Shown one piece after another: positions 10,312 to 38,236 of a stretch of DNA of 64,000 bases. The notes beneath the pieces are model-generated. The model had not been told where the DNA came from, did no database searches, and saw only the letters and a program-made list of their open reading frames with translations. The stretch spans positions 84,113 to 148,112 of the forward strand of contig SVRI01000002.1 of the NCBI GenBank assembly GCA_015064895.1, in the 5' to 3' direction. Position 1 is the first letter of the stretch, and every line of letters begins with the position of its first letter. Source of the DNA: Oscillospiraceae bacterium (GTDB lineage: Bacteria > Bacillota > Clostridia > Oscillospirales > CAG-382). Both the position numbers and the translations under genes were made by a program.

Positions 10312-10810
10312 AAGTCAGCGAGTTTTTTGCTTGCTGGCTTTTTTATATTATTCTTTCTGTACTTTTGCCCCGATGCAAAAGTACCAAAAAATCTCCACTC
10401 AAAAAGAGGGGATGGCTCATTCGGGAGGAATAAAGTACAAAAAGGCAAATTTTGACTAGGACAAATGAAACCAAACACTTCTACGAAGCCGTCAAAATTT
10501 GAACATCTACAAACTTCAATGATACTGCCGCCCTCATTCCGCTGACTTCCCCTCTTTCGCCGTGGTGGCTTAACTTCCCTCTCTTGGTGTTGGTGCAAAT
10601 CTGAAGTAAATTCGGTTGGTTGGATTGAATGTGTTCAGCCGATGTATCCCAAGCGATGCCGGGTGCGTTTTCGCGGAAATAAGGTTTGAAACTCTGTAAA
10701 CACTTACCCGCGTTGTGAGAGGTAAGCCGCCGCAGGTCGGGAAAGCCCGACCACCGCAGTGACGAAATACTCCTCTATGTACAAAGAAAGGCGTACCGAA
10801 GTACGCCTTA
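10312..10810 (+). repeat. family A large modular structured repeat, copy 1 (candidate ncRNA or MITE-like element)
   Basis: Collinear with the minus strand of 49111-48692 and partly with 16487-16716. Parts: H0 terminator-like hairpin 10312-10340; H1 gtacttttgc/gcaaaagtac 10359-10384; helix aaagagggga (10403-12) with tcccctcttt (10548-57); inner helix caaattttgac (10445-55) with gtcaaaatttg (10491-501); helix 10564-10583 with 10717-10733; hairpin gtcgggaaagcccgac 10736-51; terminal hairpin 10787-10810. Confidence 0.75.
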
Positions 10811-14000: not shown

Positions 14001-14641
14001 TGGGCATCGTCTTTATCTATATAATGGGCATCGTTTGTTGCGACAAGGGGGATGTTCAGCTTTTTGGAAAGCTCTACAAGCTTTTCATTTACGATTTCCT
14101 GTTCGTCAATACCGTGTCTCTGAAGTTCAAAGTAGTAGTCCTCACCGAAAAGGGATTTCATTTTGAGTGCGTGATTTACGGCATCATCTATATTTCCGTC
14201 GAGAATCTTCTGAGGAACAAATCCGGCAAGGCATGCCGAAAGGCACACAAGTCCTTCATGGTACTCTTCGAGAAGCGACATATCAATTCTCGGTTTTGAG
14301 TAAAAGCCTTCGGTAAAGCCGAGGGACACCATTTTAATGAGGTTCTTATAGCCCGTCTCATTTTTACAGAGCAGTACAAGGTGATTATATTTTGCGTCAA
14401 GATTTCTGTCCCTGCCGTGTCGGGAATTCGGTGCAACATACACCTCACATCCGATAATGGGTTTTATTCCGTTATCTTTACAGGCTTTATAAAATTCAAC
14501 AGCACCGTACATAACGCCGTGGTCGGTTACAGCAAGAGCAGGCATACCGCAATCTTTTGCCTTTTTAGCCGCCTCTCTTATTCTACAGGCACCGTCAAGA
14601 AGGCTATATTCTGTATGGACGTGTAAATGGACAAAGGACAT
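11006..14641 (-). CDS. dnaE: DNA polymerase III subunit alpha (DnaE type)
   Basis: ORF 11006..14650 trimmed to ATG 14641 (AGGTG 6 nt upstream). PHP N-terminus MSFVHLHVHTEYSLLDG, polymerase core, and an OB fold near the C-terminus. There is no PolC-type exonuclease insert. Confidence 0.93.
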   Translation of the reverse strand: MSFVHLHVHTEYSLLDGACRIREAAKKAKDCGMPALAVTDHGVMYGAVEFYKACKDNGIKPIIGCEVYVAPNSRHGRDRNLDAKYNHLVLLCKNETGYKNLIKMVSLGFTEGFYSKPRIDMSLLEEYHEGLVCLSACLAGFVPQKILDGNIDDAVNHALKMKSLFGEDYYFELQRHGIDEQEIVNEKLVELSKKLNIPLVATNDAHYIDKDDAQTQAVLMCIQTQTTLADGRHKGFEQDEFYLKTPDEMKILFGDVPEALENTLKIAQKCNFDFEFDKLFLPAFYPPDGLTSKQYLDKLCHEGLERRLSKYEKPDRDAYEKRLEYELSVVNTMGYDEYYLIVRDFIAHAKSEGIPVGPGRGSGAGSLAAYCLGITDVDPIPHDLLFERFLNPERVSMPDFDVDFCYFRRQEVIDYVANKYGKDHVAQIVTFGTLAAKAAIRDVGRVLGMPYADVDRVAKLIPRPFNITLSQALEESSELRELCREDFKVNSLINIAKKIEGMPRNTSTHAAGVVITDKPVSEYVPLSMNGDCIVTQYTMNEIADLGLLKIDFLGLRYLTVIYEAAKSAGLSVSDIPLDDEKTYGLLAKGDTDGIFQLESGGMRSLLVRMVPKNIEDITIAISLYRPGPMDSIPKFLENRKNPKGVKYADPNLEEILNVTNGCIVYQEQVMQVFRKLAGYSFGRADIVRRAMSKKKRDVMEREREYFIYGKKDENGNVEVPGCINNGVSEEAAKEIYDDMATFAQYAFNKSHAACYAYLAYYTAYLKCHYPKEYMASLLSSVINSTDKVMEYIGSSKKMGVAVTRPDVNTSSLTFSAGQDGIVFGLMAIKNVGEGFVKEIIKKRSGGKFVSLEDFLTRMSDGEINKRMVESLIKAGALDGLGGKKRSQLLSVFEDAIDALQRRNHRNVEGQFDMFSAVDTSEDDVGSLNISYPDIPEFSHYEKLAMEKEMTGLYLSGHPLERYAETSKKLRCDKLSDINNAVADGDKSKYRDGKTVTLLGLVSSKKEKLTKSDTRMAFVQLEDESGEIELIVFPNVYEANVSKLQPGKILGVTGEISVKESRNDDGEEQKEEPKILVRSIFDVKEGEIPVIEKKQYTPPANDDAKKVKVNLSAIMGGNVRQTPPEREVYTPEPERKMQDLYLKIPSENSNEMHMTQSVLEIYNYGKQDVYIYFDDTKKLVRALDTHSFVTDTMLETLYRILGKENVKLKDKK

Positions 14642-14649
14642 ATATTTCA

Positions 14650-14785
14650 CCTACTTTCTCTTTCGCAGAGAAAGTAGGCAAAGAGAACTCGCATTTTGCA
14701 CCTTTCTGCAAAGATTTAATATTCTGTTTATCACTCGATTGGTTTACCGTTCGACCGCCATATATCCAAGCGGTCGAACTCATTA
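14650..14785 (-). repeat. family B bipartite hairpin element, copy B1 (the entire whiA-dnaE intercistronic region)
   Basis: Minus-strand reading: TAATGAG, then hairpin 1 (gttcgaccg / loop cttggatatatgg / cggtcgaac, 14779-14749), about 70 nt, then hairpin 2 (cctactttctct / gcgaa / agagaaagtagg, 14678-14650). It aligns end to end with 21084-20947. Confidence 0.8.
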
Positions 14786-15493
14786 TTCTCCAAATGCAAT
14801 CTTAATAAGTTTCTCAAGTCTATGATTCACGCACGACTTTGTAATGGGCGGCTCATGGATTGCAGCCAAGTCCGTAAGAGACAAATCGGGGTTATCACGG
14901 CGGAGTATTGCGGTATAGAGCAGTTTTTCAGGCAGGGTATCAAACTTTTCATCTTTTATCAGTTCATTTATTGCGTCAAGCTGTCTTACTGTAGCATTTG
15001 CACTCTTTTGCATATTCGCCATTTCGCAGTTATTTACCCTGTTTACATTATTGCGTATGTTCTTTTCTATCTGTGTGTTCACCAAATCAAAGGCACATTT
15101 CTGTGCACCCATAAGCGAAAGTACTGCAAATATGGTATCGCCGTCTTTGAAATAGACAATGTACTTTTCACGTCTCTTTGACACCTTTGCCTCAAGTCCC
15201 ATTTCACGAAGCAGAATACACAGCTCGTCTGCATTCATTTCGCTTTTCACCTTCATTTCAAGGTGGCCTCTCTTATCGGGTGAATTGACAGAGCCGCATT
15301 TTAAAAACACGCCTCTTAAAAATGCATTTTTACATTCGGGACAGGTAAAATTTTCCCTTTCAATCAATGCATTCTCATTCAAAAACCTATCGGCATTTTC
15401 TATTGCTTTTTTACAGCATCTTTTCTCCTTGATGGACAAAAGTGCCTGCTTAACCTGTCCCGTAAAGGTGAGTTTTTCGTCTTGTTTTATCAT
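14783..15493 (-). CDS. whiA: DNA-binding protein WhiA, compact form
   Basis: 236 aa. ECKNAFLRGVFLKCGSVNSPDKRGHLEM, RNNVNRVNNCEMANMQKS and the C-terminal HTH ITKSCVNHRLEKL match WhiA regions I remember from B. subtilis YvcL. About 80 aa of the N-terminal half appear to be missing. Confidence 0.8.
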   Translation of the reverse strand: MIKQDEKLTFTGQVKQALLSIKEKRCCKKAIENADRFLNENALIERENFTCPECKNAFLRGVFLKCGSVNSPDKRGHLEMKVKSEMNADELCILLREMGLEAKVSKRREKYIVYFKDGDTIFAVLSLMGAQKCAFDLVNTQIEKNIRNNVNRVNNCEMANMQKSANATVRQLDAINELIKDEKFDTLPEKLLYTAILRRDNPDLSLTDLAAIHEPPITKSCVNHRLEKLIKIAFGE

Positions 15494-16486: not shown

Positions 16487-16810
16487 ATTTCTGTTCTTTT
16501 GTCCCGAAACAAAAGAACCAAAAATTCTCCACTCAAAAAGAGGGGATGGCTCATTCGGGAAAAGCAAAATGCAAAAAGGCAAATTTTGACTAGGACAAAT
16601 GAAACCAAATACTTCTACGAAGCCGTCAAAATTTGGGTATCGTCAAACTTCATTTATACTGCCGCCCGCCTTGCGCTGACTTCCCCTCTTTCGCCGTGGC
16701 GGCTTAACTCCTCTCACTGTTTGTGCGACACCAATGATTGGCGAACAAATAAAATTTCCCGTGAATTTGCTGTCGGGCTTTCCCGACCCGTGGCGGCTTA
16801 ACTCCTCTCA
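16487..16810 (+). repeat. family A modular structured repeat, copy 2
   Basis: H1 gttcttttgt/acaaaagaac at 16493-16518. Helix aaagagggga (16537-46) with tcccctcttt (16682-91). The 23-nt motif ccgtggcggcttaactcctctca occurs twice as a perfect direct repeat (16694-16716, 16788-16810). Hairpin gtcgggctttcccgac at 16772-87 is the inverse complement of 10736-51. Confidence 0.75.
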
Positions 16811-16866: not shown

Positions 16867-17058
16867 CAACTTGCTACATGCTACACAAAATTAAATTATT
16901 TTCACTGCTAATAGTGTGTATTTTTTTAGGTAAAAATGCACGCTCTATCCGTCATACTGTTAGTAGTGGATTGATTTTGTGTAGCAACAAGCGGAGCTGC
17001 GTTTTTCGTGTGTGGCTCTGTTTGGGCTACACACTTTTTTATTTTAGGAGGTATTTCC

Positions 17059-19080
17059 ATGAAAAAACGAGTTATTATTCTGTTATCACTCTTAATGTGT
17101 CTGTTTTTTGCTTTTTCCACATCTGCAACTGTAGTAGATTCCGGAACTTGCGGTGATAATTTAACATGGACTTTTGATGATATAGGAACGCTTACTATCA
17201 GTGGTACGGGGGATATGTATAATTGGCGGTTCGAAGATGCTGAGCCAGAGTACGATGCACCGTGGTATCGTTACAGAGAAACGATAGATAATGTTATTGT
17301 AGAAGCAGGTGTAACAAGCATAGGTAATCAGGCGTTTAGTTGCTTCCGACTTGTATTATATTATGAAAGCATAGGCGGTCCTCTTACAAGCATAAGCATT
17401 CCCGATACCGTGGTAAAAATCGGTGAACGGGCATTCGAACATTGTTCAAGCCTTGAATCAATAGTAATTCCAAACAGTGTAACCAGTATTGGAAATAGAG
17501 CGTTCAATTGTTGTACAAGCCTTAAAGAGATATTCATTCCTGCAAGTGTAACAAGCCTTGGACGTCAAGTGATCGGGGGACTAGTAAGCCAAGACGAGGT
17601 GATTTACGATTACGCTGAAGGAGACTTTGGCGGCACTGTACTCGGAGGTTGCACAAGTCTTGAAAGCATTACAGTTGATTCAAACAATAAAATGTATTCT
17701 AATGATGAAAGAGGTGTTTTATTTAATAAGGACAAAACAATACTTATTAAATACCCTATCGGAAATAAAGCAACTTCTTATAAAATCCCCGACGGCGTAA
17801 CAATCATTGGCAGAGGTGCATTCGAAGGTTGTTCAAATCTTAAGGAAATAATTATTCCTGAAGGTGTAACATGTATAAGCAGTTATGCATTCGAAGGTTG
17901 TTCAAATCTTAAGGAAATAATTATTCCTGAAAGCGTAATAAGCGTTGACTACGGGGCGTTCGAAGATTGCACAAACCTCGAAAGCGTTGATGTTGGAAAT
18001 AGCATAACAATCATTGATGAAAGTGCGTTTGACGGTTGCACAAGCCTTAAAAACATAACTGTTGCTGAAAATAACGAGTTATATTCAAAAGATGAAAGAG
18101 GTGTTTTGTTTAATAAGGACAAAACAATACTTATAAAATATCCAGTTAAAATTGAAGGAACTTCTTATGAAATTCCCGACGGTGTAACAAAAATTAACGA
18201 TTACGCATTCAAAGGATGCACAAGTCTTGAAGAAGTATTAATTCCTGACGGTGTAACAAGTATTGGATATTCTGCTTTCGAGGATTGCACAAGACTTAAA
18301 GCAATAGTCATTCCCGACAGTGTAACGGGTATTGGTGAACGTGCGTTTTATGGTTGTACAAATCTTAAAAGTGTAAAAATTGGTAGTAGAGTAACAAATA
18401 TAGGTGGTATGTACGCATTTGCATTTTGCACAAGTCTTGAATCGATAGAAATTCCCGAAAGCGTCACATACGTAGGGCAATTTTCATTTATGTATTGTAG
18501 GAATCTAAAAAAAGCAACTGTTTTGAGCAGAAATGCAGAATTCAGTTTTAGTATAGATGACGTGTTTGGACGTTCAAATCCCGTCATCTACGGCTACAAA
18601 GGTTCAACGGCGGAAACGGAAGCAAAAGAATACAACCGCCCGTTTGTTGCCCTTTCCGCCACCCCCACAAACGCAAAAGTACTCATCAACGGCAAAGAAG
18701 TTGCATTTACAGCCTACAACATCGGCGGCAACAACTACTTCAAACTCCGTGATGTTGCAATGGCACTAAACGGCAGTGAAAAGAATTTCAACGTAGGTTG
18801 GGACAGCACCAACAATGCAATTTCTCTTACTTCAAACCAAAGCTACACATCGGTCGGCGGCGAACTCATTGTTGATGCAAATGCTACCTCAACAGAACCT
18901 ATCGTTACAAATTCAAGAGTTTACAAGGATAGCGAGCCCGTTTCATTCATTGCGTTCAACATCGGTGGAAACAACTACTTCAAGCTTCGTGATATTGGCA
19001 AAGCTTTTGATTTCGGTATCGGTTGGGACAATGAGACTAAAACCATTACCATTGACACAAGCATAGGTTATACCGAATAA
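17059..19080 (+). CDS. secreted BspA-type leucine-rich-repeat surface protein with two C-terminal stalk-like repeats
   Basis: ORF 17008..19080 trimmed to ATG 17059 (AGGAGG 7 nt upstream; signal peptide MKKRVIILLSLLMCLFFAFSTSA). About 15 units of the ~23-aa repeat IP..V..IG..AF..C..L. The C-terminus has two copies of a module ..NGK/S..V.F.A(Y/F)NIGGNNYFKLRD.. resembling copper-amine-oxidase-N-like stalk domains. Confidence 0.8.
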   Translation: MKKRVIILLSLLMCLFFAFSTSATVVDSGTCGDNLTWTFDDIGTLTISGTGDMYNWRFEDAEPEYDAPWYRYRETIDNVIVEAGVTSIGNQAFSCFRLVLYYESIGGPLTSISIPDTVVKIGERAFEHCSSLESIVIPNSVTSIGNRAFNCCTSLKEIFIPASVTSLGRQVIGGLVSQDEVIYDYAEGDFGGTVLGGCTSLESITVDSNNKMYSNDERGVLFNKDKTILIKYPIGNKATSYKIPDGVTIIGRGAFEGCSNLKEIIIPEGVTCISSYAFEGCSNLKEIIIPESVISVDYGAFEDCTNLESVDVGNSITIIDESAFDGCTSLKNITVAENNELYSKDERGVLFNKDKTILIKYPVKIEGTSYEIPDGVTKINDYAFKGCTSLEEVLIPDGVTSIGYSAFEDCTRLKAIVIPDSVTGIGERAFYGCTNLKSVKIGSRVTNIGGMYAFAFCTSLESIEIPESVTYVGQFSFMYCRNLKKATVLSRNAEFSFSIDDVFGRSNPVIYGYKGSTAETEAKEYNRPFVALSATPTNAKVLINGKEVAFTAYNIGGNNYFKLRDVAMALNGSEKNFNVGWDSTNNAISLTSNQSYTSVGGELIVDANATSTEPIVTNSRVYKDSEPVSFIAFNIGGNNYFKLRDIGKAFDFGIGWDNETKTITIDTSIGYTE

Positions 19081-20767: not shown

Positions 20768-20946
20768 GGTAAATACAGTCCTTTCTTTCGGATATGACAA
20801 TACCGCCATCACGCAAAAAAGCATGACGGCGGCAGAAAGTACGTATTTACTCTTTTAAAAGGCGACAGTGAGCCGAAGTGAATACGTCTTTCTGCGATTT
20901 ATGTAATTGTAAAGGCAACTTCGCCCGTCCGTACTCATTCTACTCA

Positions 20947-21084
20947 CCTACTTTTTCTTTCGGAGAAAAAGTAGGCAAAAAGAACTCACACTTAGCTCGT
21001 TCCTGCCATTATCTTTCTCCGATTTTTTGTTTCTCAAATTGTTTTACGTCTGTGTGCCATAAATCCAAGCACACAGGCTCATTA
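20947..21084 (-). repeat. family B bipartite hairpin element, copy B2 (in the mgtE leader, just after mutS)
   Basis: Minus-strand reading: TAATGAG, then hairpin 1 (gcctgtgtg / cttggatttatgg / cacacagac, 21078-21048), then hairpin 2 (cctactttttct / ccgaa / agaaaaagtagg, 20975-20947), followed by TGA. Confidence 0.8.
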
Positions 21085-21109
21085 GAAATTATAAATTCTT
21101 AATTCAAAT

Positions 21110-23716: not shown

Positions 23717-23802
23717 TTTTTTACCCGACCTTTTTTTCTGAAATATAATTTTGGCATCTCCAAAAATGCCAAATGATGAATTAGGAATAAGCAAAGAGTT
23801 TG

Positions 23803-23940
23803 GTCGGTCGGATTTATGCCGACCAAACGGGGTTATTTATGCGACACCGATGGCATGTTTTCGACAAAACATGCCCCGTGAATTCTTTTCTTTTTTGCTG
23901 ACTTTTTTCTTTTCAGCAAAGAAAAAAGTCAGTGGCAGCC
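23803..23940 (+). repeat. family B bipartite hairpin element, copy B3 (opposite orientation to B1 and B2)
   Basis: Plus-strand reading: GAG, then hairpin 1 (tttggtcgg / tcggatttatg / ccgaccaaa, 23807-35), ACGGGG, a middle hairpin at 23860-83 closed by acgggg/ccccgt, then hairpin 2 (ctgacttttttcttt / tcagc / aaagaaaaaagtcag, 23906-40). Confidence 0.7.
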
Positions 23941-26704: not shown

Positions 26705-26745
26705 CTTGAGTTTGCATCGTAGCGTTTATGCGATGCAAACGGGGT
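26705..26745 (+). repeat. family B hairpin-1 module only, copy B4
   Basis: tGAGtttgcatcg / tagcgtttatg / cgatgcaaaCGGGGTTA (stem 26709-17 with 26729-37). The flanks and loop match 23803-23845, but the stem sequence is different and still complementary. Confidence 0.65.
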
Positions 26746-26762
26746 TAGTTACGCGATTAATA

Positions 26763-27569
26763 TTATTTGTTCTTATCAGAAGCTTTGCCCGCGAAATTGC
26801 CTGCGGCGGCTCGCCGTGCAATAAAATGCAATCTTTCATTTACATTTTCGTCTGCCCCTGAAAAGTCCATGCCGCCGAAAGAGTATACCTTTTCAAAGCC
26901 TGCTTCCTTAAGGTATGCACGTATATTCTTTTCGGTATACATCCTTTCCTTATTATCTTCATCGTGGCGTGAGTATGTACCGTCTTCGTTTTCGATAAAG
27001 AATGAAAGATAAAAATCGCAGATTTTCTTTTCTTCATCATAGAAGTTCTGCCATGCACAGAGTACCCCATCATCTTCAAGGACATAAGCATTGTCGGCAT
27101 AGATATTTTCAAACTTATACTTTGAGTTTACGTCAAAGACAAACACACCGCCGTCGACAAGTATATCGTATGCACTCTTAAAGCATTCCTTGACGCTTTT
27201 GGGAGTCAGCAGGCAGTTTACGCTGTCAAGAAGGCAGATTACGGCACCCGCTTTATTTGAAGCTGTAAACGAGCACATATCCTGTTTTGCGAAAATTACA
27301 TTTCTGCATCCCTTTTCAAATGCCTTGTTGTCGGCAATTGACAGCATATCCTCCGAAAGGTCGCTGGCGGTAACTTTATAACCGCGTTTTTCAAGTTCAA
27401 TGGCAACGCTACCCGTACCGCATGCAATTTCGCAAACGTGTTTTACCTCACACTCTGCATACTTTTCAAAGCATTCTTCACAAAAGTCTGCCCAATCTTT
27501 CGGGTCAACATCGGCGTTGAGTCTGTCGTAAACTTCAGACAGATACTGTCCGTAGCCTTTATTCTTCAT
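26763..27569 (-). CDS. class I SAM-dependent methyltransferase
   Basis: 268 aa. Motif I VCEIACGTGSVAIELEKRGYKVTASDLSEDML. Substrate unknown. Confidence 0.75.
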   Translation of the reverse strand: MKNKGYGQYLSEVYDRLNADVDPKDWADFCEECFEKYAECEVKHVCEIACGTGSVAIELEKRGYKVTASDLSEDMLSIADNKAFEKGCRNVIFAKQDMCSFTASNKAGAVICLLDSVNCLLTPKSVKECFKSAYDILVDGGVFVFDVNSKYKFENIYADNAYVLEDDGVLCAWQNFYDEEKKICDFYLSFFIENEDGTYSRHDEDNKERMYTEKNIRAYLKEAGFEKVYSFGGMDFSGADENVNERLHFIARRAAAGNFAGKASDKNK

Positions 27570-29632: not shown

Positions 29633-29676
29633 AGCAATTGTAATGCTTTTTATTTAATTCAAAGGAGTTGTTTGTT

Positions 29677-31089
29677 TTGAAATTGAAACGAATATTATTT
29701 GTTTTACTTGCATTTATTTCACTTCTTGCCATTTGCTCCTGCAAAAAAGATGAAGACAAAAAATCTACATACGTTCCTGTAGCAGGTGACGAATACTGGC
29801 TCGGTCACAATCCTCAGGAAGACATGAAAGGTTATCAATTCAGAATTCTTTCCAGAAAAGGCATGAAAAGCGATCAGTATGCTGAAGAACAGACCGGTGA
29901 CATTATCAACGATGCCATTTACAAGAGGAACGAAACTGTAAAGGGTTATTTCAACTGTGATGTCGTTTCAATTGAAAGCTCATCAGGCAGTGCCGATGAT
30001 GCCATCAACTCCATTCTTGCGGGTGATGACCAGTATGACATCATTTTCCCTCACTCAAGATCAGCATTCCAGTATGCTGTTCAGGATGCTCTTGTAAATT
30101 TCAATGACATAAAAACCATCCACCTTGACAAGTCCTGGTGGTCGCAGGATATTATTGATTCATGTAATGTAAACGGACATCTTTACGTTCTTGACGGCGA
30201 TATCTCCACACACAGACTTCAGTATGCATTCTGTATGTTCTTCAACAAGAGAATCTTTGACGAACTCGGTATTGAATATCCTTACCGGATGGCTCTTGAC
30301 GGCACATGGACATTTGATGAGTTTTCAAAGCTTGTAAAGAAGGGTTCAAAGGACCTCAACGGTGACGGTATTCTTAAGCCCGAAGACGACCAGTTCGGTT
30401 ATTACACAAGTAACTGGTACGGACCTATCAACGTACTTTATACGGGCGGTCAGAGAATTTATTCCAAAAATGCGGCAGGAGTACCTTATATATCTCTCAA
30501 TTCCAACAAGACTGTGGAAATTTTCTCAGAATTCTTTAAGCTTACCGATTCCGACGATGTCTATATTTACAATCAGATAAGCAATGAAAGCGACCCTGCA
30601 GGAAATCCCTTCAATGAAGGCCGTTCAATGTTTGCAGACAAGGGCCTTGGTAATGCGAAGGCTATGAGAAGCATGAACGACGAATTCGGTATTCTCCCTT
30701 GGCCCAAGTTCACCGAGGAAGACGTATATGCAACTGTAGTAAACGGTCATGCAAGCCTTATGGTTATGCCTATAACCGTTGCTGACAAACAGAAATCCGG
30801 TAAAATTATCGAAGCACTCTGTGCTATCGGTAACAAGGAAGTTATTCCTGCATTCTACGATGTATCACTTAAAACAAAATTCTCTAGAGACGCCGAATCC
30901 GAAGCAATGATTGATATCATAAAAGATTCCATCATCTACGACCTCGGTTACGTTTCCGGCGGTGTATTGAATTCTGTAGGTTCGTCACTTTCCAAGAGCA
31001 GCAACCATGACTTCGCTCAATTCTATGCTCAGAACGAATCCAAGGCTCAGTCAGACCTTCAGAGCTTCCTTGAAGCTTACGGTTCATAA
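29677..31089 (+). CDS. ABC-type extracellular solute-binding lipoprotein (family-1 SBP-like), paralog 1
   Basis: ORF 29668..31089. TTG 29677 is the best start (AAAGGAG 9 nt upstream) and gives MKLKRILFVLLAFISLLAICSC with a lipobox. SBP-like features: NKRIFDELGIEYP..DGTWTFDEFSKLVKKGSKDLNGDG. Confidence 0.8.
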   Translation: MKLKRILFVLLAFISLLAICSCKKDEDKKSTYVPVAGDEYWLGHNPQEDMKGYQFRILSRKGMKSDQYAEEQTGDIINDAIYKRNETVKGYFNCDVVSIESSSGSADDAINSILAGDDQYDIIFPHSRSAFQYAVQDALVNFNDIKTIHLDKSWWSQDIIDSCNVNGHLYVLDGDISTHRLQYAFCMFFNKRIFDELGIEYPYRMALDGTWTFDEFSKLVKKGSKDLNGDGILKPEDDQFGYYTSNWYGPINVLYTGGQRIYSKNAAGVPYISLNSNKTVEIFSEFFKLTDSDDVYIYNQISNESDPAGNPFNEGRSMFADKGLGNAKAMRSMNDEFGILPWPKFTEEDVYATVVNGHASLMVMPITVADKQKSGKIIEALCAIGNKEVIPAFYDVSLKTKFSRDAESEAMIDIIKDSIIYDLGYVSGGVLNSVGSSLSKSSNHDFAQFYAQNESKAQSDLQSFLEAYGS

Positions 31090-31101
31090 TATTAAGATTT
31101 G

Positions 31102-31134
31102 AAAGCCCGTTTTCCAACGGGCTTTTCTTTTTTT
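31102..31134 (+). terminator. Rho-independent terminator after SBP paralog 1
   Basis: aaagcccgt (31102-10) pairs with acgggcttt (31117-25), followed by tcttttttt. Confidence 0.8.
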
Positions 31135-31225
31135 CGATTTATTATTTTTTTACAATTTGTTATCCGCATTCTAACAAAGTGGTGTTAATGTATAGTGAGA
31201 GTTAGGCTTTTTAGGGGGTAATATT

Positions 31226-32632
31226 TTGAATATTAAGAGTATTTTTTTAATCCTTCTTGCGGTATTATCTATTTTTGCTGTCAGCTCATGCAAGAAGAAA
31301 GACTCCGGAATTTCTACATACGTTCCTGTTGCCGGTGATGAGTACTGGCTGGGTCACAATCCGCAGGAAGATATGGACGGATATCAATTCAGAATCCTTT
31401 CGAGAAAAGGCATGAAAAGTGACCAGTATGCAGAAGAAGAAACCGGCGATATTATCAATGATGCAGTTTTCAAAAGAAATGAAACGGTAAAGGGTTATTT
31501 CAACTGCGACATCATTACAATAGAAAGCTCTACAAACAAGGCCGACGATGCCATCAACTCAATCCTTGCAGGCGATGACCAGTATGACATTCTTCTTCCC
31601 CACTCAAGATCGGCTTTCCAGTATGCAATCCAGGATGCACTTGTTAACTTCAACGATGTAAAGACAATCGATACATCCAAGGATTGGTGGTCGAAGGATA
31701 TTATTGACTCCTGTAACATAAACGGTTATCTCTACGTTCTTGACGGTGACATCTCTACCCACAGACTTGAATACGGCTTTGCCATGTACTTCAACAAGAG
31801 GATTTTTGACGAGCTTGGTCTTGAATATCCTTATCAGATGGCTATTGACGGTACATGGACATTTGACGAATTTTCAAAGCTCGTAAAGAAGGGTTCAAAG
31901 GACCTCAACGGCGACGGTCTCATCAAGCCCGAGGACGACCAGTACGGTTACTATTCATGGCATGCCTTCGGACCCATTCAGGTGCTTTATACGGGCGGTC
32001 AGAGAATCTATTCCAAGAGTGCTACGGGTGTTCCCTATCTTTCTTTAAACTCAACAAAAACTTTAAATCTTTATTCCGATTTCTTCAGACTTTGCGATTC
32101 CGATGACGTATTACTCTGTGCTGCACAGAATGCTCCGTCAGAAAATTTATTCACTGCAGGACGTGCAATGTTCGCAGACAACGGTCTCGGTCAGGCAAAA
32201 ACATTTAGAAACATGAGCGATGAATTCGGTATTCTCCCCTGGCCCAAGTACACAGCAGAAGATGAATACAAGACAGTTATCAACGGTCATGCAAGCCTTC
32301 TCGTTATGCCCATCACTGTTCCGGACAAGCAAAAATCGGGCAAGATTATCGAAGCACTCTGTGCTCTTGGCAACAAAGAAGTAGTTCCTGCTTTCTATGA
32401 TGTATCTCTTAAAACAAAGTTTTCGAGAGACGCCGAATCCGAAGCAATGATTGATATTATCAGAGACTCTCTCATATATGACCTCGGCTATGTTTCGGGC
32501 GGTACATTCCAGAATGTCGGTGAAAGACTTGCATCAATGGGTAACCGTGACTTTGCCTCCTATTATGCACAGAACGAATCCAAGGCTCAGACAGATCTTC
32601 AGAACTTCCTCGCATCCTACGGCAAATTATAA
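31226..32632 (+). CDS. ABC-type extracellular solute-binding lipoprotein, paralog 2
   Basis: 468 aa. TTG start with AGGGGG 7 nt upstream. Signal and lipobox MNIKSIFLILLAVLSIFAVSSC. Full-length alignment with paralog 1. Confidence 0.8.
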   Translation: MNIKSIFLILLAVLSIFAVSSCKKKDSGISTYVPVAGDEYWLGHNPQEDMDGYQFRILSRKGMKSDQYAEEETGDIINDAVFKRNETVKGYFNCDIITIESSTNKADDAINSILAGDDQYDILLPHSRSAFQYAIQDALVNFNDVKTIDTSKDWWSKDIIDSCNINGYLYVLDGDISTHRLEYGFAMYFNKRIFDELGLEYPYQMAIDGTWTFDEFSKLVKKGSKDLNGDGLIKPEDDQYGYYSWHAFGPIQVLYTGGQRIYSKSATGVPYLSLNSTKTLNLYSDFFRLCDSDDVLLCAAQNAPSENLFTAGRAMFADNGLGQAKTFRNMSDEFGILPWPKYTAEDEYKTVINGHASLLVMPITVPDKQKSGKIIEALCALGNKEVVPAFYDVSLKTKFSRDAESEAMIDIIRDSLIYDLGYVSGGTFQNVGERLASMGNRDFASYYAQNESKAQTDLQNFLASYGKL

Positions 32633-32644
32633 AATGCAACAGCA

Positions 32645-32677
32645 AAAGGCTTGTCTTACGGCAAGCCTTTATTTTTG
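32645..32677 (+). terminator. Rho-independent terminator after SBP paralog 2
   Basis: aaaggcttg (32645-53) pairs with caagccttt (32662-70), followed by atttttg. Confidence 0.8.
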
Positions 32678-32706
32678 TACATTTTTTATTCTTTACAAAT
32701 TAGATG

Positions 32707-32735
32707 TTGACTACAGTGAAAAAACTGTGTAAAAT
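32707..32735 (+). promoter_or_regulatory. promoter of SBP paralog 3
   Basis: TTGACT (32707-12), 17 nt, then TAAAAT (32730-35). Confidence 0.6.
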
Positions 32736-32769
32736 ACAATATGAAGTTCATATTTAGGAGGTATATCCT

Positions 32770-34179
32770 TTGAGAATCAAAAGATTATCATGTATTCTTC
32801 TTGCCGTAGCATCTTTATTTATAATCAGTGCGTGCAAGAAAGATGACAAAGACAGAACCACATACGTTCCTGTAGCCGGTGACGAATATTGGTTAGGTCA
32901 CATTGAACAGGAAGACATGCAGGGATATCAGTTCAGAATACTTTCAAGAAAAGGCATGGTAGATGACCAGTATGTTGAAAAAGAAACAGGCGATATCATC
33001 AACGATGCCGTCTACAAGAGAAATGAAACGGTAAAGGGATATCTTAATATCGACATAGTTTCAATCGAAAGTTCCACTGACACCGCGTCCGACGCAATCA
33101 ACTCAATTCTTGCGGGCGATGACCAGTATGACGTAATGTTCCCCCACTCAAGAGCGGCTTTCCAGTATGCTGTTCAGGATGCACTTGTAAACTTCAATGA
33201 CATTAAAACAATTGACACCTCTAAACCCTGGTGGTCACAGGATATCATAGATTCATGTAATGTAAACGGACATCTTTATGTTCTTGACGGCGACATTCAG
33301 ACTGACAGACTTTTCTATGCGTTCTGTATGTTCTTCAACAAGAGAATCTTTGACGAGCTGGGTGTTGAATATCCTTACCAGATGGCACTTGACGGCACAT
33401 GGACATTTGATGAGTTTTCAAAGCTTGTAAAGAAGGGCTCAAAAGACCTCAACGGTGACGGTTTGCTCAAGCAAGAAGAAGACCAGCTCGGCTACTACAC
33501 AAGAGAATGGTACGGTCCTATCCAGGCACTTTATTCGGGTGGACAAAGAATCTATTCCAAGGATGCAAGAGGCATACCCGTTCTCTCACTCAACTCCAAT
33601 AAAACAGTTGATATTTTCTCCGATTTCTTCAAGCTCGCCGACTCAGATGACGTTTTCCTTCAGTTGACTCCCGGAAGACTTGCAAAGGAAGACTTATTCC
33701 CTGTAGGACGTGCAATGTTTGCAGACAGAGGTCTCGGCTCTGCCCAGGCACTCAGAAGTATGGATGACGAATTCGGTATTCTCCCCTGGCCAAAGTTTTC
33801 TGCCGATGATGAATACAAGACGGTGGTTAACGGTCATGCATGTTTACTTACAATGCCCATCACTGTTCCCGATAAGCAGAAGTCAGGTAAGATTATTGAA
33901 GCCCTCTGTGCCCTCGGCAACAAGGAAGTACTTCCTGCATTCTATGAAGTATCACTAAAGACCAAGTTCTCTAGAGATGCCGAATCCGAAAAGATGATTG
34001 ACATTATCAAGGACTCCATTATCTACGACCTCGGTTACGTTTCCGGCGGTACAATGAACTCGGTCGGTGCTACTCTTGCTCAGAGTAACAACCATGATTT
34101 CTCTCAGTTCTATGCACAGAATGAATCAAAGGCTCAGACAGACCTTCAGAGTTTCCTTAAATCCTACGGTAAAATGTAA
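32770..34179 (+). CDS. ABC-type extracellular solute-binding lipoprotein, paralog 3
   Basis: 469 aa. TTG start with AGGAGG 8 nt upstream. MRIKRLSCILLAVASLFIISAC. Confidence 0.8.
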   Translation: MRIKRLSCILLAVASLFIISACKKDDKDRTTYVPVAGDEYWLGHIEQEDMQGYQFRILSRKGMVDDQYVEKETGDIINDAVYKRNETVKGYLNIDIVSIESSTDTASDAINSILAGDDQYDVMFPHSRAAFQYAVQDALVNFNDIKTIDTSKPWWSQDIIDSCNVNGHLYVLDGDIQTDRLFYAFCMFFNKRIFDELGVEYPYQMALDGTWTFDEFSKLVKKGSKDLNGDGLLKQEEDQLGYYTREWYGPIQALYSGGQRIYSKDARGIPVLSLNSNKTVDIFSDFFKLADSDDVFLQLTPGRLAKEDLFPVGRAMFADRGLGSAQALRSMDDEFGILPWPKFSADDEYKTVVNGHACLLTMPITVPDKQKSGKIIEALCALGNKEVLPAFYEVSLKTKFSRDAESEKMIDIIKDSIIYDLGYVSGGTMNSVGATLAQSNNHDFSQFYAQNESKAQTDLQSFLKSYGKM

Positions 34180-34184
34180 TTTTC

Positions 34185-34211
34185 AAACTCCCCTTTTTGG
34201 GGAGTTTTTTT
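34185..34211 (+). terminator. Rho-independent terminator after SBP paralog 3
   Basis: aaactcccc/ggggagttt followed by a T-run. Nearly identical to the terminator at 36104-36132. Confidence 0.85.
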
Positions 34212-34212
34212 A

Positions 34213-34241
34213 TTGACTCATTCATGAAACAGTGATATAAT
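34213..34241 (+). promoter_or_regulatory. promoter of SBP paralog 4
   Basis: TTGACT (34213-18), 17 nt, then TATAAT (34236-41). Confidence 0.65.
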
Positions 34242-34265
34242 CTATTACAATAAGGAGGTTTGATT

Positions 34266-36098
34266 ATGAAAAACATTCGCAAACTGACACTTACATTACT
34301 TTTAATCTCACTTATAGTTTCAATTATCGCATGTACTTCTGCAGATACAAAGGAAACAGATCCGGAGGATGCTGTATGGGAAGGCTATGATGATGTTGAG
34401 TTTGTTAAGTTTCTGGGAAACAGCAGTGCAGATGAGGTAGAAGTCACGGTAAAGGAAGGTTGGGGCAAGTCGGATGAGCTTAACGAAGAAGATGACTTAT
34501 CCGAGGATGCAAAGGCTTATACATACACCTATGAGCGTGTTTCGGGCAAAGATATTGTAGAAAAAATCCACTTTTTTATGATTCTTGAAGACAATGAGCT
34601 TACGCCTGCGGGTTGTTACAACGAAACCACCCATGAGGAGCTGGACAAAGGCGACACCGAGGATATACTCGAAGGGCTGATTGACGAATTTGAACTGTAC
34701 AACGAAAAGAAAAGCTCAAGCAACAATAGTAATTATCCCGACAATAACAATGCAGAATCTTTACGTCCCAACAATACAACATATCTTCCTAATTCAGGCT
34801 ATGAAAACTGGCTTGGTCACATTGAACAGGAAAACATGGACGGTTATACGTTCAGAATCCTTTCAAGAAAAGGCATGGTAGATGACCAGTATGTTGAAGA
34901 AGAAACAGGTGACATTGTCAACGATGCTGTCTACAAAAGAAACGAAATTGTAAAGGGTTACTTCAATATTGACATTGTTTCAATCGAAAGCTCCACTGAC
35001 ACAGCTTCCGACGCAATCAACTCAATTCTTGCGGGCGATGACCAGTACGATATCATGTTCCCTCACTCAAGAACAGCATTCCAGTATGCTGTTCAGGATG
35101 CTCTTGTCAATTTCAATGATGTATACACAATCGATACATCAAAAGAATGGTGGTCACAGGATATTGTTGACTCATGTAACGTAAACGGTAACCTTTACGT
35201 ACTTGACGGTGATATCTCAACTCACAGACTTTATTACTGCTTTGCAATGTACTTCAACAAGAGAATATTTGATGAACTCTGTCTTGAATATCCCTATCAG
35301 ATGGCTCTTGACGGCACATGGACATTTGACGAATTCTCAAAGCTTGTAAAGAAGGGTTCAAAGGACCTCAACGGTGACGGTCTTCTCAAGCAGGAAGATG
35401 ACCAGCTCGGCTATTATACAAGAGAATGGTTCGGTGCAATTCAGGTTCTTTATTCAGGTAACCAGAGAATCTACTCAAAGGATGCAAGAGGAATTCCGAG
35501 ACTTTCGCTTAATACACCTAAAACAGTTCAGTTGTTTTCCGACTTCTTTAAACTGACCGATTCCGATGATGTATTCATGCAGATTTCACCCGGAAATCTC
35601 GCAAAGGAAGACTTGTTCCCTGCAGGTCGTGCAATGTTTGCAGACAAGGGTCTCGGCTCTGCTCAATCACTCAGAAGCATGGACGATGAATTCGGTATCC
35701 TTCCCTGGCCTAAGTTCTCTGAAGAAGATGAGTATGAAACGATTGTAAACGGTCATGCAAGCCTTATGGTTATGCCCATCACTGTTCCGGACAAACAAAA
35801 ATCCGGTAAGATTGTAGAAGCACTCTGTGCCATCGGTAACAAGGAAGTTATTCCTGCATTCTACGAAGTATCACTTAAAACAAAATTCTCTAGAGACGCC
35901 GAATCCGAAGCAATGTTTGATATCATAAAAGATTCCATCATCTACGACCTCGGTTACGTTTCGGGAGGTACAATGAACTCTGTTGGTGCTACTCTTGCTC
36001 AGAGAGACAACCACGATTTCTCTCAGTTCTATGCACAGAATGAATCAAAGGCTCAGTCAGACCTTCAGAACTTCTTAAGCTCTTACGGTAAAATGTAA
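34266..36098 (+). CDS. ABC-type extracellular solute-binding lipoprotein, paralog 4, with an extra ~150-aa N-terminal region
   Basis: ATG 34266 (GGAGG 7 nt upstream). MKNIRKLTLTLLLISLIVSIIAC. About 150 aa of acidic, unique sequence and an S/N-rich linker precede the SBP body shared with the other paralogs (from ..YLPNSGYENWLGH). Confidence 0.8.
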   Translation: MKNIRKLTLTLLLISLIVSIIACTSADTKETDPEDAVWEGYDDVEFVKFLGNSSADEVEVTVKEGWGKSDELNEEDDLSEDAKAYTYTYERVSGKDIVEKIHFFMILEDNELTPAGCYNETTHEELDKGDTEDILEGLIDEFELYNEKKSSSNNSNYPDNNNAESLRPNNTTYLPNSGYENWLGHIEQENMDGYTFRILSRKGMVDDQYVEEETGDIVNDAVYKRNEIVKGYFNIDIVSIESSTDTASDAINSILAGDDQYDIMFPHSRTAFQYAVQDALVNFNDVYTIDTSKEWWSQDIVDSCNVNGNLYVLDGDISTHRLYYCFAMYFNKRIFDELCLEYPYQMALDGTWTFDEFSKLVKKGSKDLNGDGLLKQEDDQLGYYTREWFGAIQVLYSGNQRIYSKDARGIPRLSLNTPKTVQLFSDFFKLTDSDDVFMQISPGNLAKEDLFPAGRAMFADKGLGSAQSLRSMDDEFGILPWPKFSEEDEYETIVNGHASLMVMPITVPDKQKSGKIVEALCAIGNKEVIPAFYEVSLKTKFSRDAESEAMFDIIKDSIIYDLGYVSGGTMNSVGATLAQRDNHDFSQFYAQNESKAQSDLQNFLSSYGKM

Positions 36099-36103
36099 TT
36101 TTC

Positions 36104-36132
36104 AAACTCCCCTTTTTTGGGGAGTTTTTCTT
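36104..36132 (+). terminator. Rho-independent terminator after SBP paralog 4
   Basis: aaactcccc-tttttt-ggggagttt followed by ttc tt. Confidence 0.8.
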
Positions 36133-36182
36133 ATTTCAGCAATACCAAACAACTTTCTTAATATTGATGAAACAAAAAATCG

Positions 36183-36211
36183 TTGATATGTTAACAGAAT
36201 TTTGGTATAGT
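36183..36211 (+). promoter_or_regulatory. promoter of SBP paralog 5
   Basis: TTGATA (36183-88), 17 nt, then TATAGT (36206-11). Confidence 0.6.
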
Positions 36212-36250
36212 TATGGTGTATTGCAAGAATTTATTAAGGAGGTACATACC

Positions 36251-37660
36251 TTGAAAATCAAAAGATTGCTTTGTTTTGCTGCCCTGATTCTCTCAGTTGT
36301 TGCTTTCAGTGCATGTAAAAACGAGGATGAAGAAATATCCAAGTACATTCCTAATGCCGGCGATGAATATTGGCTCGGTCACATCCCACAGGAAAACATG
36401 GACGGTTACGAATTCAGAATCCTTTCAAGAAAAGGCATGGTAGATGACCAGTATGTTGAAGAAGAAACAGGTGATATCATCAACGATGCCGTTTTTAAAA
36501 GAAATGAAACAGTAAAGGGTTACTTTAACATTGACATTGTTTCAATTGAAAGCTCCTCCAATACTGCGGATGATGCTATCAGTTCCATCCTTGCAGGTGA
36601 TGACCAGTATGACATCATGCTGCCCCACTCAAGAACAGCATTCCAGTATGCTATTCAGGATGCACTCGTAAACTTCAACGATATCAAAACAATCGATACA
36701 TCAAAAGAATGGTGGTCTCCCGATATTATCGACTCTTGTAACGTAAACGGACATCTTTACGTTCTCGACGGCGATATTTCTACTCACAGACTTTACTACT
36801 GCTTTGCGATGTACTTCAACAAGAGAATCTTTGATGAACTCGGTCTTGAATATCCTTATCAGATGGTTTTGGATAATAACTGGACATTTGACGAATTTTC
36901 AAAGCTCGTAAAGAAGGGTTCAAAGGACCTCAACGGTGACGGTCTTCTCAAGCAGGAGGACGACCAGCTCGGCTATTATACAAGAGAATGGTTCGGTGCA
37001 ATTCAGGTTCTTTATGCAGGTAACCAGAGAATTTACGCAAAGGATGCCGCAGGCATTCCCAGACTTACACTTAACTCTCCTAAGACAGTTCAGGTATTCT
37101 CTGACTTCTTCAAGCTCGCCGACTCCGACGATGTATTCCTTCAGATTTCACCCGGTAAGGTTGCTAAGGAAGACTTGTTCCCTGCAGGTCGTGCAATGTT
37201 CGCCGATAATGACCTTGGTCAGGCTCAGCAGCTCAGAGCCATGGATGACGAATTCGGTATTCTCCCCTGGCCTAAGTTCTCTGCCGATGATAAGTATGAA
37301 ACAGTTGTAAACGGTCATGCAAGCCTTCTTACAATGCCTATCACGGTTCCCGATAAGCAGAAGTCAGGCAAGATTATTGAAGCGCTTTGTGCTCTCGGTA
37401 ATAAGGAAGTTATTCCCGCGTTCTACGAAGTATCTCTTAAGACAAAGTTCTCAAGAGATACAGAATCCGAAAAGATGATTGACATTATCAAGGACTCTAT
37501 CATCTACGACCTCGGTTACGTTTCCGGCGGTACAATGAACTCTGTTGGTGCTACTCTTGCAAATCAAAGCAATCATGACTTTGCTCAGTTCTATGCTCAG
37601 AACGAATCAAAGGCTCAGGTTGACCTTCAGAACTTCTTAAGCTCTTACGGTAAAATGTAA
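36251..37660 (+). CDS. ABC-type extracellular solute-binding lipoprotein, paralog 5
   Basis: ORF 36164..37660 trimmed to TTG 36251 (AAGGAGG 8 nt upstream), which gives MKIKRLLCFAALILSVVAFSAC, matching the N-termini of the other paralogs. The upstream part of the ORF overlaps the promoter. Confidence 0.8.
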   Translation: MKIKRLLCFAALILSVVAFSACKNEDEEISKYIPNAGDEYWLGHIPQENMDGYEFRILSRKGMVDDQYVEEETGDIINDAVFKRNETVKGYFNIDIVSIESSSNTADDAISSILAGDDQYDIMLPHSRTAFQYAIQDALVNFNDIKTIDTSKEWWSPDIIDSCNVNGHLYVLDGDISTHRLYYCFAMYFNKRIFDELGLEYPYQMVLDNNWTFDEFSKLVKKGSKDLNGDGLLKQEDDQLGYYTREWFGAIQVLYAGNQRIYAKDAAGIPRLTLNSPKTVQVFSDFFKLADSDDVFLQISPGKVAKEDLFPAGRAMFADNDLGQAQQLRAMDDEFGILPWPKFSADDKYETVVNGHASLLTMPITVPDKQKSGKIIEALCALGNKEVIPAFYEVSLKTKFSRDTESEKMIDIIKDSIIYDLGYVSGGTMNSVGATLANQSNHDFAQFYAQNESKAQVDLQNFLSSYGKM

Positions 37661-37671
37661 AACATAATATT

Positions 37672-37706
37672 AAAACCTCATGCTTTAATCAGCATGAGGT
37701 TTTTTC
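37672..37706 (+). terminator. Rho-independent terminator after SBP paralog 5
   Basis: acctcatgct (37675-84) pairs with agcatgaggt (37691-700), followed by ttttt. Confidence 0.85.
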
Positions 37707-37716
37707 TGTATAAATT

Positions 37717-38160
37717 AAAACCGAAACTAACGTGTAGTCTCGGTTTTGCCGCGGGGCTTCCCCTTACAAAACACATAGTCTTTTGCCTGAGTTTGTCCGC
37801 TTTCGTTTATGGCGGACAAACGGTACTTCACTCGGGCAATAAAAAAACAAAACCGAAACTAGAGTATAGTCTCGGTTTTGCCGCGGGGCTTCTCCTTACA
37901 AAACACATAGTCTTTTGCCTAAGTTTGTCCGCTTTCGTTTATGGCGGACAAACGGTGATTCACTCGGGCAATAAAAAAATAAACCGAAACTAGAGTATAG
38001 TCTCGGTTTTGCCGTGGGGCTTCCCCTTACAAAACACATAGTCATTTGCCTGAGTTTGTCCGCTTTCGTTTATGGCGGACAAACGGTGCTTCACTCGGGC
38101 AATAAAAAAATAAACCGAAACCAACGTGTAGTCTCGGTTTTGCCGTGGGGCTTCCCCCAC
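37717..38160. repeat. tandem array, 3 full units plus 1 partial unit of 131-132 bp, directly abutting the 3' end of tRNA-Val
   Basis: Unit starts (aaaccgaaac..) at 37718, 37850, 37981 and 38112. Units are near-identical. Each holds an 11-bp hairpin aaaccgaaact/agtctcggttt (on the minus strand this is followed by atttttttatt, which is terminator-like) and a family B hairpin-1 module (tttgtccgc / tttcgtttatg / gcggacaaa at 37792-37820, 37924-52 and 38055-83). Confidence 0.9.
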
Positions 38161-38236
38161 TGGTGGACGATAAGGAACTCGAATCCCTGACCACTCGCAC
38201 GTCAAGCGAGTGCTCTACCAACTGAGCTAATCGTCC
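38161..38236 (-). tRNA. tRNA-Val (anticodon GAC), CCA encoded
   Basis: Manual cloverleaf: acceptor GGACGAT/ATCGTCC; D-arm GCTC-AGTTGGTA-GAGC; anticodon arm CTCGC-TTGACGT-GCGAG (GAC at 34-36); variable loop TGGTC; T-arm AGGGA-TTCGAGT-TCCTT; then A-CCA. Total 76 nt. Confidence 0.9.

Follow-up and report, generated by a model that had tools for sequence, protein, structure and literature searches.

A Probable Copy of a Dispersed Hairpin-Rich Repeat Family Between whiA and dnaE in an Animal-Gut Clostridia Lineage

Introduction

What is the hairpin-rich sequence that fills the interval between whiA and dnaE in an uncultured Oscillospiraceae genome, and was it built for the two genes that it separates? 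Both genes lie on the minus strand of the 64,000-nt stretch of contig SVRI01000002.1 analyzed here (the window) and are separated by a spacer of 141 nt. The original prediction treated this spacer as a portable intercistronic cassette that supplies the whiA stop codon, opens with stops in more than one frame, and closes with the Shine-Dalgarno (SD) sequence of dnaE, partly held in a stem that could control synthesis of the polymerase. A comparison of relatives distinguishes a designed intercistronic structure of this sort from a repeat that landed beside an older ribosome-binding site.

Bacterial genomes commonly carry families of stem-loop repeats, those of Clostridium, Enterococcus, and Bacillus among them (PMC2267715). 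We put at roughly 0.75 the probability that the whiA–dnaE element (copy 1) belongs to a family of modular, hairpin-rich repeats dispersed among the intergenic regions of an uncultured Clostridia lineage from animal guts. The family is previously undescribed, and its kind (REP/BIME/BOX-like intergenic repeats) is well known; as an intergenic repeat it is of an ordinary sort, selfish or semi-domesticated, and was not built for the purpose of joining a stop to a start. It is abundant in metagenome-assembled genomes (MAGs) of ruminant and other animal-gut Clostridia, in which it breaks assemblies, alters gene ends, and yields spurious small open reading frames (ORFs).

Table 1. Coordinates of the principal features of the window, and the corresponding spacers of relatives (percentages are WhiA identity to the window)
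Feature	Position	Strand	Description
whiA	14783-15493	minus	WhiA LAGLIDADG and HTH domains
whiA TAA stop codon	14783..14785	minus	ancestral position; abuts copy 1, with the element's TGA next in frame
dnaE	ATG at 14641	minus	PHP, Pol III alpha, finger, HhH, and OB domains
dnaE SD, AGGTGA	14647..14652	minus	AGG within the P3 stem; ATG 5 nt on
Copy 1 (subfamily A), P1-P2-P3 repeat	14650..14782	minus	~135 nt; begins with TGAG next to the whiA TAA and ends with P3
Copy 1 P1 hairpin	14749..14779	minus	10 bp GTTCGACCGC/GCGGTCGAAC, 11-nt loop TTGGATATATG
Copy 1 P3 hairpin	14650..14678	minus	12 perfect bp CCTACTTTCTCT/AGAGAAAGTAGG, loop GCGAA
Copy 2 (subfamily A)	20947..21081	minus	between the mutS stop (21110) and the mgtE leader ATG; 51.1 bits
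Copy 2 hairpins	P1 21078-21048, P3 20975-20947	minus
Copy 3 (class i/B), full length	23796..23932	plus	antisense to a ylbF-like gene and mutS; 56 bits
Copy 3 hairpins	P1 23798-23828, P3 23898-23932	plus
Copy 4 (class iii)	26708..26820 (end approximate)	plus	antisense to hsp33 and a methyltransferase gene; 55.2 bits
Array of head-to-tail 131-nt units	37709..38157	plus	three P1 modules: 37786-37826, 37918-37958, 38049-38089; 52.6-58.1 bits
whiA-dnaE, L016/L017 (81%)			198 nt; element, set off from the whiA stop by ~60 nt of AGGAATT repeats
whiA-dnaE, L015 (82%)			162 nt; class-i P1; an unrelated GC hairpin in place of the 5' arm of P3
whiA-dnaE, L013/L014 (89%)			769 nt; other repeats in a mosaic, with a plain GGAGGTGA
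whiA-dnaE, L018 (71%), L020 (68%), L021 (60%)			36-53 nt; purine-rich, without the element
ylbF-mutS, L049 and L050			53 and 61 nt between called genes; without a P1-P3 element
ylbF-mutS, L047			heptamer arrays; without a P1-P3 element
ylbF-mutS, L048			different repeat mosaic; without a P1-P3 element

The whiA-dnaE Spacer and Its Counterparts in Relatives

The structural core of the original prediction is present in the sequence. The perfect 12-bp stem (14678-14667 paired with 14661-14650) closes a 5-nt loop, and the AGG of the SD is paired within it, with the dnaE ATG following after 5 nt. The P1 hairpin of copy 1 scores 55.5 bits with the covariance model and has a folding free energy of -19.6 kcal/mol; the value for P3 is -21.6 kcal/mol, and further G·U and A-U pairs can lengthen its stem over the SD, RNAfold extending the 12 bp to 15-16 pairs. 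Compared with shuffled sequences, two copies have fold z-scores of -5.8 (the whiA-dnaE region) and -4.0. Copy 1 is identical in the same-species contigs L008-L012, which have the same 141-nt spacer; the species was represented by 23 contigs from many samples.

The ends of the element proved different from what had been proposed. The TGA of TAATGAG, taken for a +1-frame stop, is an in-frame tandem stop (GGA GAA TAA TGA). The element supplies neither the whiA stop nor the GGTGA of dnaE, since both are present in relatives with or without it: the stop occupies the same or an adjacent codon position in all relatives, and GGTGA recurs at equal spacing in the element-free spacers of L018 (AAGGTGA), L020 (GAGGTGA), and L013 (GGAGGTGA). 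The element here occupies precisely the interval from the ancestral stop codon to the ancestral GGTGA. In L013, the closest relative by WhiA identity, GGAGGTGA lies outside any P3-like stem, and the long spacer contains short modules common to several window intergenic regions together with a reversed P1-like hairpin.

Several gene-specific explanations were rejected on this evidence. A dnaE-specific leader or riboswitch does not fit a sequence that L018, L020, and L021 lack, that L013 has replaced, and that is rearranged in L015, and a gene-specific cis-regulatory RNA does not fit a unit whose other copies adjoin unrelated genes and a tRNA. Origin of P3 by inverted duplication of the local ribosome-binding site was discarded because the same P3 occurs away from gene starts in L002 and L003.

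An ORF of 59 codons begins at TAATG, where an ATG overlaps the whiA TAA (14605-14784, minus strand), and spans the repeat as far as an overlap with the start of dnaE; it is among the genes annotated by some metagenome callers (L009, 4711-4890; L012, 1951-2130). A small protein initiated at TAATG was nonetheless rejected: the ORF, 59 codons long in copy 1, has 12 in copy 2 and lacks an ATG in L016. The 59-codon frame through copy 1 is probably spurious.

As a separate observation on the upstream gene, the WhiA proteins of this clade have only ~233-241 residues, with LAGLIDADG-like and HTH domains and a shortened N-terminus (homologues P0001-P0110); forms at the bottom of the homologue hit list have ~300 residues. 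The start of whiA overlaps the stop of murB.

Additional Copies in the Window

The second copy that had been reported, with conserved ends and a diverged center, was confirmed at 21081-20947; its first hairpin has an almost entirely different stem and the same loop as copy 1. Copies 1 and 2 align, flanks included, at 79% identity; a shared 20-mer has a chance expectation of 0.01 and was observed twice. An ATG does follow copy 2 after 5 nt, as had been reported, but it belongs to a pre-existing mgtE leader. That ATG is not part of any cassette, since the leader, starting ATGAGTACGGACGGGCGAAGT and carrying its own purine-rich SD, exists in relatives without the element (L015, L016, and partly L020; it is absent in L013). 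The mutS-mgtE spacer is free of the element in L013, L015, L016, and L020, and the close relative L005 has an orthologous element just upstream of the leader ATG, as in the window.

Two copies turned out to be an undercount. A hairpin catalogue of the window followed by nhmmer revealed the further copies, and a search with the P1 covariance model, run with no filters, returned exactly seven modules in the 64 kb (51-58 bits), the next match scoring 15 bits and the reverse strand of the same seven sites only 9-14 bits. The seven comprise four dispersed elements and three modules in a 131-nt tandem array, a density of about one per 9 kb. Gene ends are touched in two cases: the P3 stem of copy 3 overlaps the TGA stop of ylbF on the opposite strand, and the 3' half of copy 4 extends over ~20 codons at the end of the methyltransferase ORF, whose stop is at 26763. 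Copy 3 is confined to the window lineage in the comparison with L047-L050.

Three spacers of one conserved cluster (ylbF/mutS/mgtE...murB-whiA/dnaE) have thus been colonised in the window lineage, and the whiA-dnaE, mutS-mgtE, and ylbF-mutS spacers are hot spots for several repeat families. These presence/absence differences at orthologous sites, together with the dispersal of the family, bear out the portability of the element that had been proposed.

The array abuts a tRNA gene (38164-38236, minus strand). It consists of three to four units, the minus strand of each reading as a terminator made of a canonical hairpin and a run of seven T, and the tRNA gene is thereby trailed by repeated terminators inside the array.

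Modular Architecture and Covariation of P1

The module order is common to 42 unique copies retrieved by nhmmer. Each unit (~115-140 nt) consists of P1, a linker of ~8 nt, the P2 helix around a variable insert, a conserved linker, and P3. P1 opens with GAGTTYG and closes with CRAACGG; in between, five variable pairs enclose an 11-nt loop around TTGCGTTTATG. On one strand its flanks are (T)GA and GG(N); on the other they are CC and TC(A). P2 is a short helix (UUCGGG/CCCGAA, CUCGG/CCGAG, or UUCGCG/CGCGAA) that includes some G·U pairs, and the linker that separates it from P3 is either YSYGAA(A)TTG or TTTTTGCC. P3 comes in a few interchangeable types, either T-rich/A-rich (e.g., CCTACTTTTTCT/AGAAAAAGTAGG) or GC-rich (e.g., GCGGGGG/CCCCCGC). 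Modules are also found solitary, in head-to-tail arrays, or in mosaics with other repeats. The 5' consensus of the family is (T)GAGTTTG, not TAATGAG, and most members end in hairpins without an SD.

Covariation was evaluated in an alignment of 22 distinct P1 modules (220 cells). Pairing is preserved in 98.2% of the cells versus 30-40% when partners are slid, and double changes affect seven of the ten pairs (48 cells), with zero one-sided (G·U) changes. Almost no variation occurs in the helix base or the asymmetric loop, and the five upper pairs are hypervariable. A hypervariable yet strictly Watson-Crick stem argues for an extruded hairpin, as single-stranded DNA or RNA, and not for a duplex operator. 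The alternative that P1 is a double-stranded operator, bound by a dimeric protein (e.g., nucleoid or regulatory) on GTTTG...CAAAC half-sites, draws on the conserved outer half-sites with their fixed 21-bp spacing, and an orientation-independent function would fit the mixed orientations of the copies. A duplex site, however, needs no perfect complementarity at five inner hypervariable positions, and mutations that break inner-stem complementarity are not common in natural copies. Nor does an operator need the asymmetric conserved loop (covariance scores are 51-58 bits forward versus 9-14 in reverse), and the P2 and P3 modules and the arrays are left unexplained; we consider this alternative scarcely credible.

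Conservation of unpaired positions (the P1 loop and the linkers) is strong across many contigs and exceeds that expected of a decaying selfish repeat, which suggests a function for the host or the element. The strand reading GAGTTTG folds to -43.1 kcal/mol versus -40.5 kcal/mol for its complement (26:13, p = 0.007), a slight difference that is confounded by G+T richness; this weak preference and the G·U pairs of P2 hint at a role at the RNA level. By eye, no consistent complement to the P1 loop was seen in downstream sequence that would form a pseudoknot.

These features raise the alternative of a functional structured RNA, either a cis-acting stability or processing element or a multicopy small RNA, that became repeated secondarily and whose loop and linkers are protein- or RNA-binding sites. 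Covarying stems around conserved unpaired positions, better folding and more G·U pairs on the forward strand, the G·U pairs of P2, and z-scores of -4 to -5.8 are all in keeping with such an RNA, and many stem-loop repeat families are thought to be active as RNA (PMC2267715, PMC3733652). The absence of G·U from all 220 P1 cells is, however, atypical of RNA helices. About half of the copies are antisense to both neighbors, with no promoter of their own detected and promoter-like sites at background; an own-strand terminator after the unit is absent, and no Rfam relative was found. The density of about one per 9 kb, the tandem arrays, and the enrichment at contig ends are typical of repeats. An RNA that was functional first and repeated second is accordingly an unlikely account of the family.

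Distribution, Orientation, and Gene Context

In addition to the seven P1 modules of the window, about 35 more were found in metagenomic, genomic, and one phage-like contig. A pattern scan that used only the fixed P1 positions (GAGTTYG-N10-TTTATG-N5-CRAACGG) matched 24 metagenomic loci, of which L026 and L033 are chance matches, and a phage-like contig with three tandem copies that encodes tail, reverse-transcriptase, GIY-YIG, and M23 proteins. The five upper-stem positions left unconstrained by the pattern are all complementary in 29 of the 33 matches, which contain approximately nine stem sequences. A scan of a genome collection for the 3' module found it in other Clostridia/Oscillospiraceae MAGs, alone (L003), as a tandem pair (L002), and in an array (L006). 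Tandem arrays of the family (L023, L028, L031, L046, and the window at 37.7 kb) are all head-to-tail, with periods of 129-165 nt.

Copies are nearly always intergenic, with housekeeping genes as neighbors in the examined cases; distances to genes range from overlap to >800 nt, and many copies lie at contig ends. Orientation was counted on crude ORF maps with arrays and orthologues collapsed to ~27 sites, giving 10 same to 12 opposite for the upstream neighbor and 7 to 10 for the downstream neighbor. Within the window, copies 1 and 2 are sense, and copies 3 and 4 are antisense to both neighbors. The preference for positions next to stop or start codons that a cassette would predict is therefore not seen in this survey, in which orientation is mixed and gene distances extend from overlap to beyond 800 nt.

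The cassette reading, in which a multiframe stop of upstream translation is joined to a structured downstream SD that controls dnaE, can be weighed at this point. Copies 1 and 2 are sense, begin TAATGAG, and finish GTAGG/TGA-N5-ATG; at dnaE, P3 and the SD persist together in L016, which differs from copy 1 by a compensatory change; folding predictions show the dnaE SD occluded (see below); and MIRUs offer a precedent for insertion at a start codon with coupled ORFs (PMC12548453). Against this, the TGA is in frame, and the whiA stop and GGTGA are older than the element, from which the stop is ~60 nt distant in L016. The TAATG ORF varies from 59 codons to 12 to none, as described above, and nothing of this kind is present at dnaE in L013, the closest relative. 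In other copies the terminal GTAGG runs on into TGG, TCG, GCC, TTA, etc., or the end is a GC-rich hairpin, and the family consensus contains neither TAA nor SD. With orientation and position mixed, the survey largely refutes the proposal, and we regard a cassette with multiframe stops and a terminal SD as highly improbable.

Repeats of another sort often accompany the family. Heptamer arrays, (TTAGGAG)n or (AGGAATT)n, recur right after stop codons and often directly 5' of P1 (L013, 527-575; L015, 3725-3750; L016, 3720-3775; L032, ~140-180; L047, 1985-2085), and remnants occur in the window at 23775-23792 and 21085-21109. The unit consists of TAG and AGGAG, so that three units give stops in three frames along with SD-like cores. 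In L047 the heptamer array is followed by its complement, (ATTCCTC)n.

Comparison with Known Repeat Families

REP/BIME elements of Proteobacteria resemble the present family as dense, short intergenic palindromes that form clusters or mosaics, fall into subfamilies distinguished by complementary changes, and occasionally overlap gene ends; REP subfamilies are known to carry alternative complementary stem residues (PMC3733652). P1 falls within the REP definition of an abundant intergenic palindrome (stem of 5-13 bp, loop of 2-20 nt) with its 10 bp, its 11-nt loop, and seven occurrences in 64 kb. It lacks the unpaired GTAG/CGTC tag at the palindrome end: GTAG occurs only inside the paired P3 of subfamily A, and other copies have GTCAG or GTAAG. 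Arrays are head-to-tail and not clusters of alternating orientation (head-to-head/tail-to-tail) as in REP. The present unit also differs in its three-part organization, its length of ~130 nt, its long conserved 11-nt loop, and its Clostridia host; the phyla listed as bearing REPs exclude Firmicutes (PMC3733652). REPs are associated with RAYT enzymes, none of which was seen near the present copies examined.

The nearest Firmicute families are BOX (Streptococcus pneumoniae), Efa-1 (Enterococcus), bcr1 (Bacillus cereus group), and Clop-1/Clot-1 (Clostridium). BOX elements are likewise built of modules. All of these families differ from the present one in module set and consensus, judged without direct comparison of the consensus sequences themselves, and to our knowledge a hypervariable, always-paired upper stem is not a described feature of any of them. 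They share with it an intergenic location, a length of ~100-200 nt, one or two predicted hairpins, and occurrence in both orientations near genes (PMC2267715).

The known system closest to the cassette idea is that of the MIRUs, mobile short intercistronic repeats, sometimes tandem, that occur at start codons with downstream translation kept (PMC12548453). The ORF of a MIRU is coupled to and co-oriented with the downstream gene, whereas the ORF found here is unconserved and orientation is mixed; most of the present copies, moreover, are not at start codons. ERIC/IRU and Correia elements are similar in size (~100-160 nt) and differ as single long imperfect palindromes with terminal inverted repeats, the present units being serial independent hairpins. 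Correia elements (NEMIS) are transcribed intergenic insertions with TA target duplications, whose RNA hairpins change the expression of neighbors according to orientation. For ERIC, RNA hairpins from transcribed intergenic insertions likewise alter neighbor expression in an orientation-dependent manner (PMC2267715).

Searches for Known Relatives, Enzymes, and Signals

At the gathering threshold, a tRNA was the only Rfam 15 match in the window, and when copies 1-3 and ten loci of the other classes were searched at permissive thresholds, nothing emerged beyond spurious matches of miRNA type and an unrelated FMN riboswitch. Blastn against curated phage and plasmid records found no similar sequence, and a literature search by sequence strings yielded irrelevant matches only. 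No transposase/Y1 (RAYT) protein was detected among 19 neighboring proteins scanned, no mobilizing enzyme adjoins any copy examined, and a related insertion sequence was not found. Target-site duplication was inconsistent among sites, a AGAATGAGT-like direct repeat being present at copy 2/L005 only. An inverted-repeat relation between the two ends (GAGTTTG... and ...P3), as in the terminal inverted repeats that define a MITE, is absent. We infer mobility solely from distribution.

Candidate signals within the unit were also rejected. The reading of P3 as an intrinsic terminator was dismissed because the T-run precedes P3 and no terminator-like site was called within the elements; a terminator reading is available only in the 131-nt array units, on the opposite strand. 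An internal promoter was discounted, with one 10/12 match in copy 2 that is not conserved in copy 1 and counts at shuffle background. The unit does not fit the consensus of an attC-like or dif-like site.

Predicted Effect on the dnaE Shine-Dalgarno Sequence and a Model for the Family

In the folding predictions, AGGUGA is left unpaired with a probability of 0.012 (window) or 0.008 (L016); in spacers with no intact P3 the value is 0.27 (L015), 0.38 (L013), 0.57 (L018), and 0.86 (L020). SD occlusion is thus predicted only with P3 intact. By this folding model, P3 probably masks the ribosome-binding site of dnaE, and an effect on translation or mRNA stability, specific to the lineage, is plausible given values of 0.012 and 0.008 versus 0.27-0.86 in relatives. 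REPs affect mRNA stability and translation once transcribed (PMC3733652, PMC2817692). Control of dnaE translation by the stem, as originally envisaged, accordingly survives as a physically plausible effect; the arrangement at dnaE is not conserved, L013 lacking such a structure. The predicted occlusion offers a testable natural case of a repeat modulating an essential gene.

For the family as a whole, we favor an intergenic repeat whose P1 hairpin is likely read, when extruded, by a structure-specific trans-acting enzyme or protein that may also spread the element. Strict Watson-Crick complementarity in a hypervariable stem with a fixed loop is what points to recognition of the extruded hairpin. 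Insertion near an essential start would survive only where the SD is reconstituted (GTAGG/TGA), and the apparent design of GTAGG/TGA-N5-ATG at two sites would follow because only SD-preserving insertions survive. The identical 5-nt spacing from P3 and SD to the ATG at dnaE and at the mgtE leader is a coincidence, explained only by survivorship or microhomology. Once cotranscribed, P3 would occlude the dnaE SD, lowering dnaE translation or coupling it, and might stabilize the mRNA, as a local side-effect or exaptation and not as the purpose of the element.

The one feature that could hide novelty is the conserved loop over a hypervariable paired stem. It invites a further reading, in which P1-P2-P3 is a new structure-defined class with a dedicated partner for the loop and base, and subfamily A has been repeatedly co-opted as SD-occluding attenuators at dnaE and the mgtE leader. 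Hypothetical partners are a single-stranded DNA transposase that is specific for hairpins and works without REP-type tags, and an RNA-binding protein. We consider this improbable; if a hairpin-specific recognition factor were found, it might represent a new mobilization or RNA-binding system in Firmicutes.

Other Structured Elements and Repeats

The mgtE leader mentioned above is structured and conserved (window, ~20770-20938, minus strand; L005; L015, ~430-617; L016, ~410-560). It begins with a short ORF (M-S-T-D-G-R-S...), contains the boxes GACGGGCGAAGU, CGUAUUCAC, and GGUAAAUACG, and has mutually exclusive helices and a terminator-like hairpin ahead of a probable GTG start. In Rfam it matched neither the M-box nor any family at E ≤ 1. 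It may be an undescribed attenuator or riboswitch, a suggestion based on four compared sequences with little covariation. Between mgtE and murB, the window has a BspA-type leucine-rich-repeat gene with a Cu_amine_oxidN1 domain (17008-19080, plus strand) that is absent there in L013, L015, L016, and L020, in which mgtE is followed directly by murB.

A second repeat family is represented by two stretches of ~231 nt (10354-10584 and 16488-16718; 88% identical), one downstream of dnaE and the other upstream of murB, and carries a P3-like T-rich/A-rich hairpin. No Rfam match was obtained for it; the mosaic spacers of L013 and L048 contain pieces of it, as do L005, L018/L019, and L035. In L043 (435-562, minus strand), an FMN riboswitch (96.8 bits) adjoins two tandem copies of the present repeat, one of which is overlapped by a second, degenerate FMN-like match. 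The window also contains, at 29670-37700 on the plus strand, five tandem paralogous genes of ~1.55 kb each that are 70-87% identical at the DNA level.
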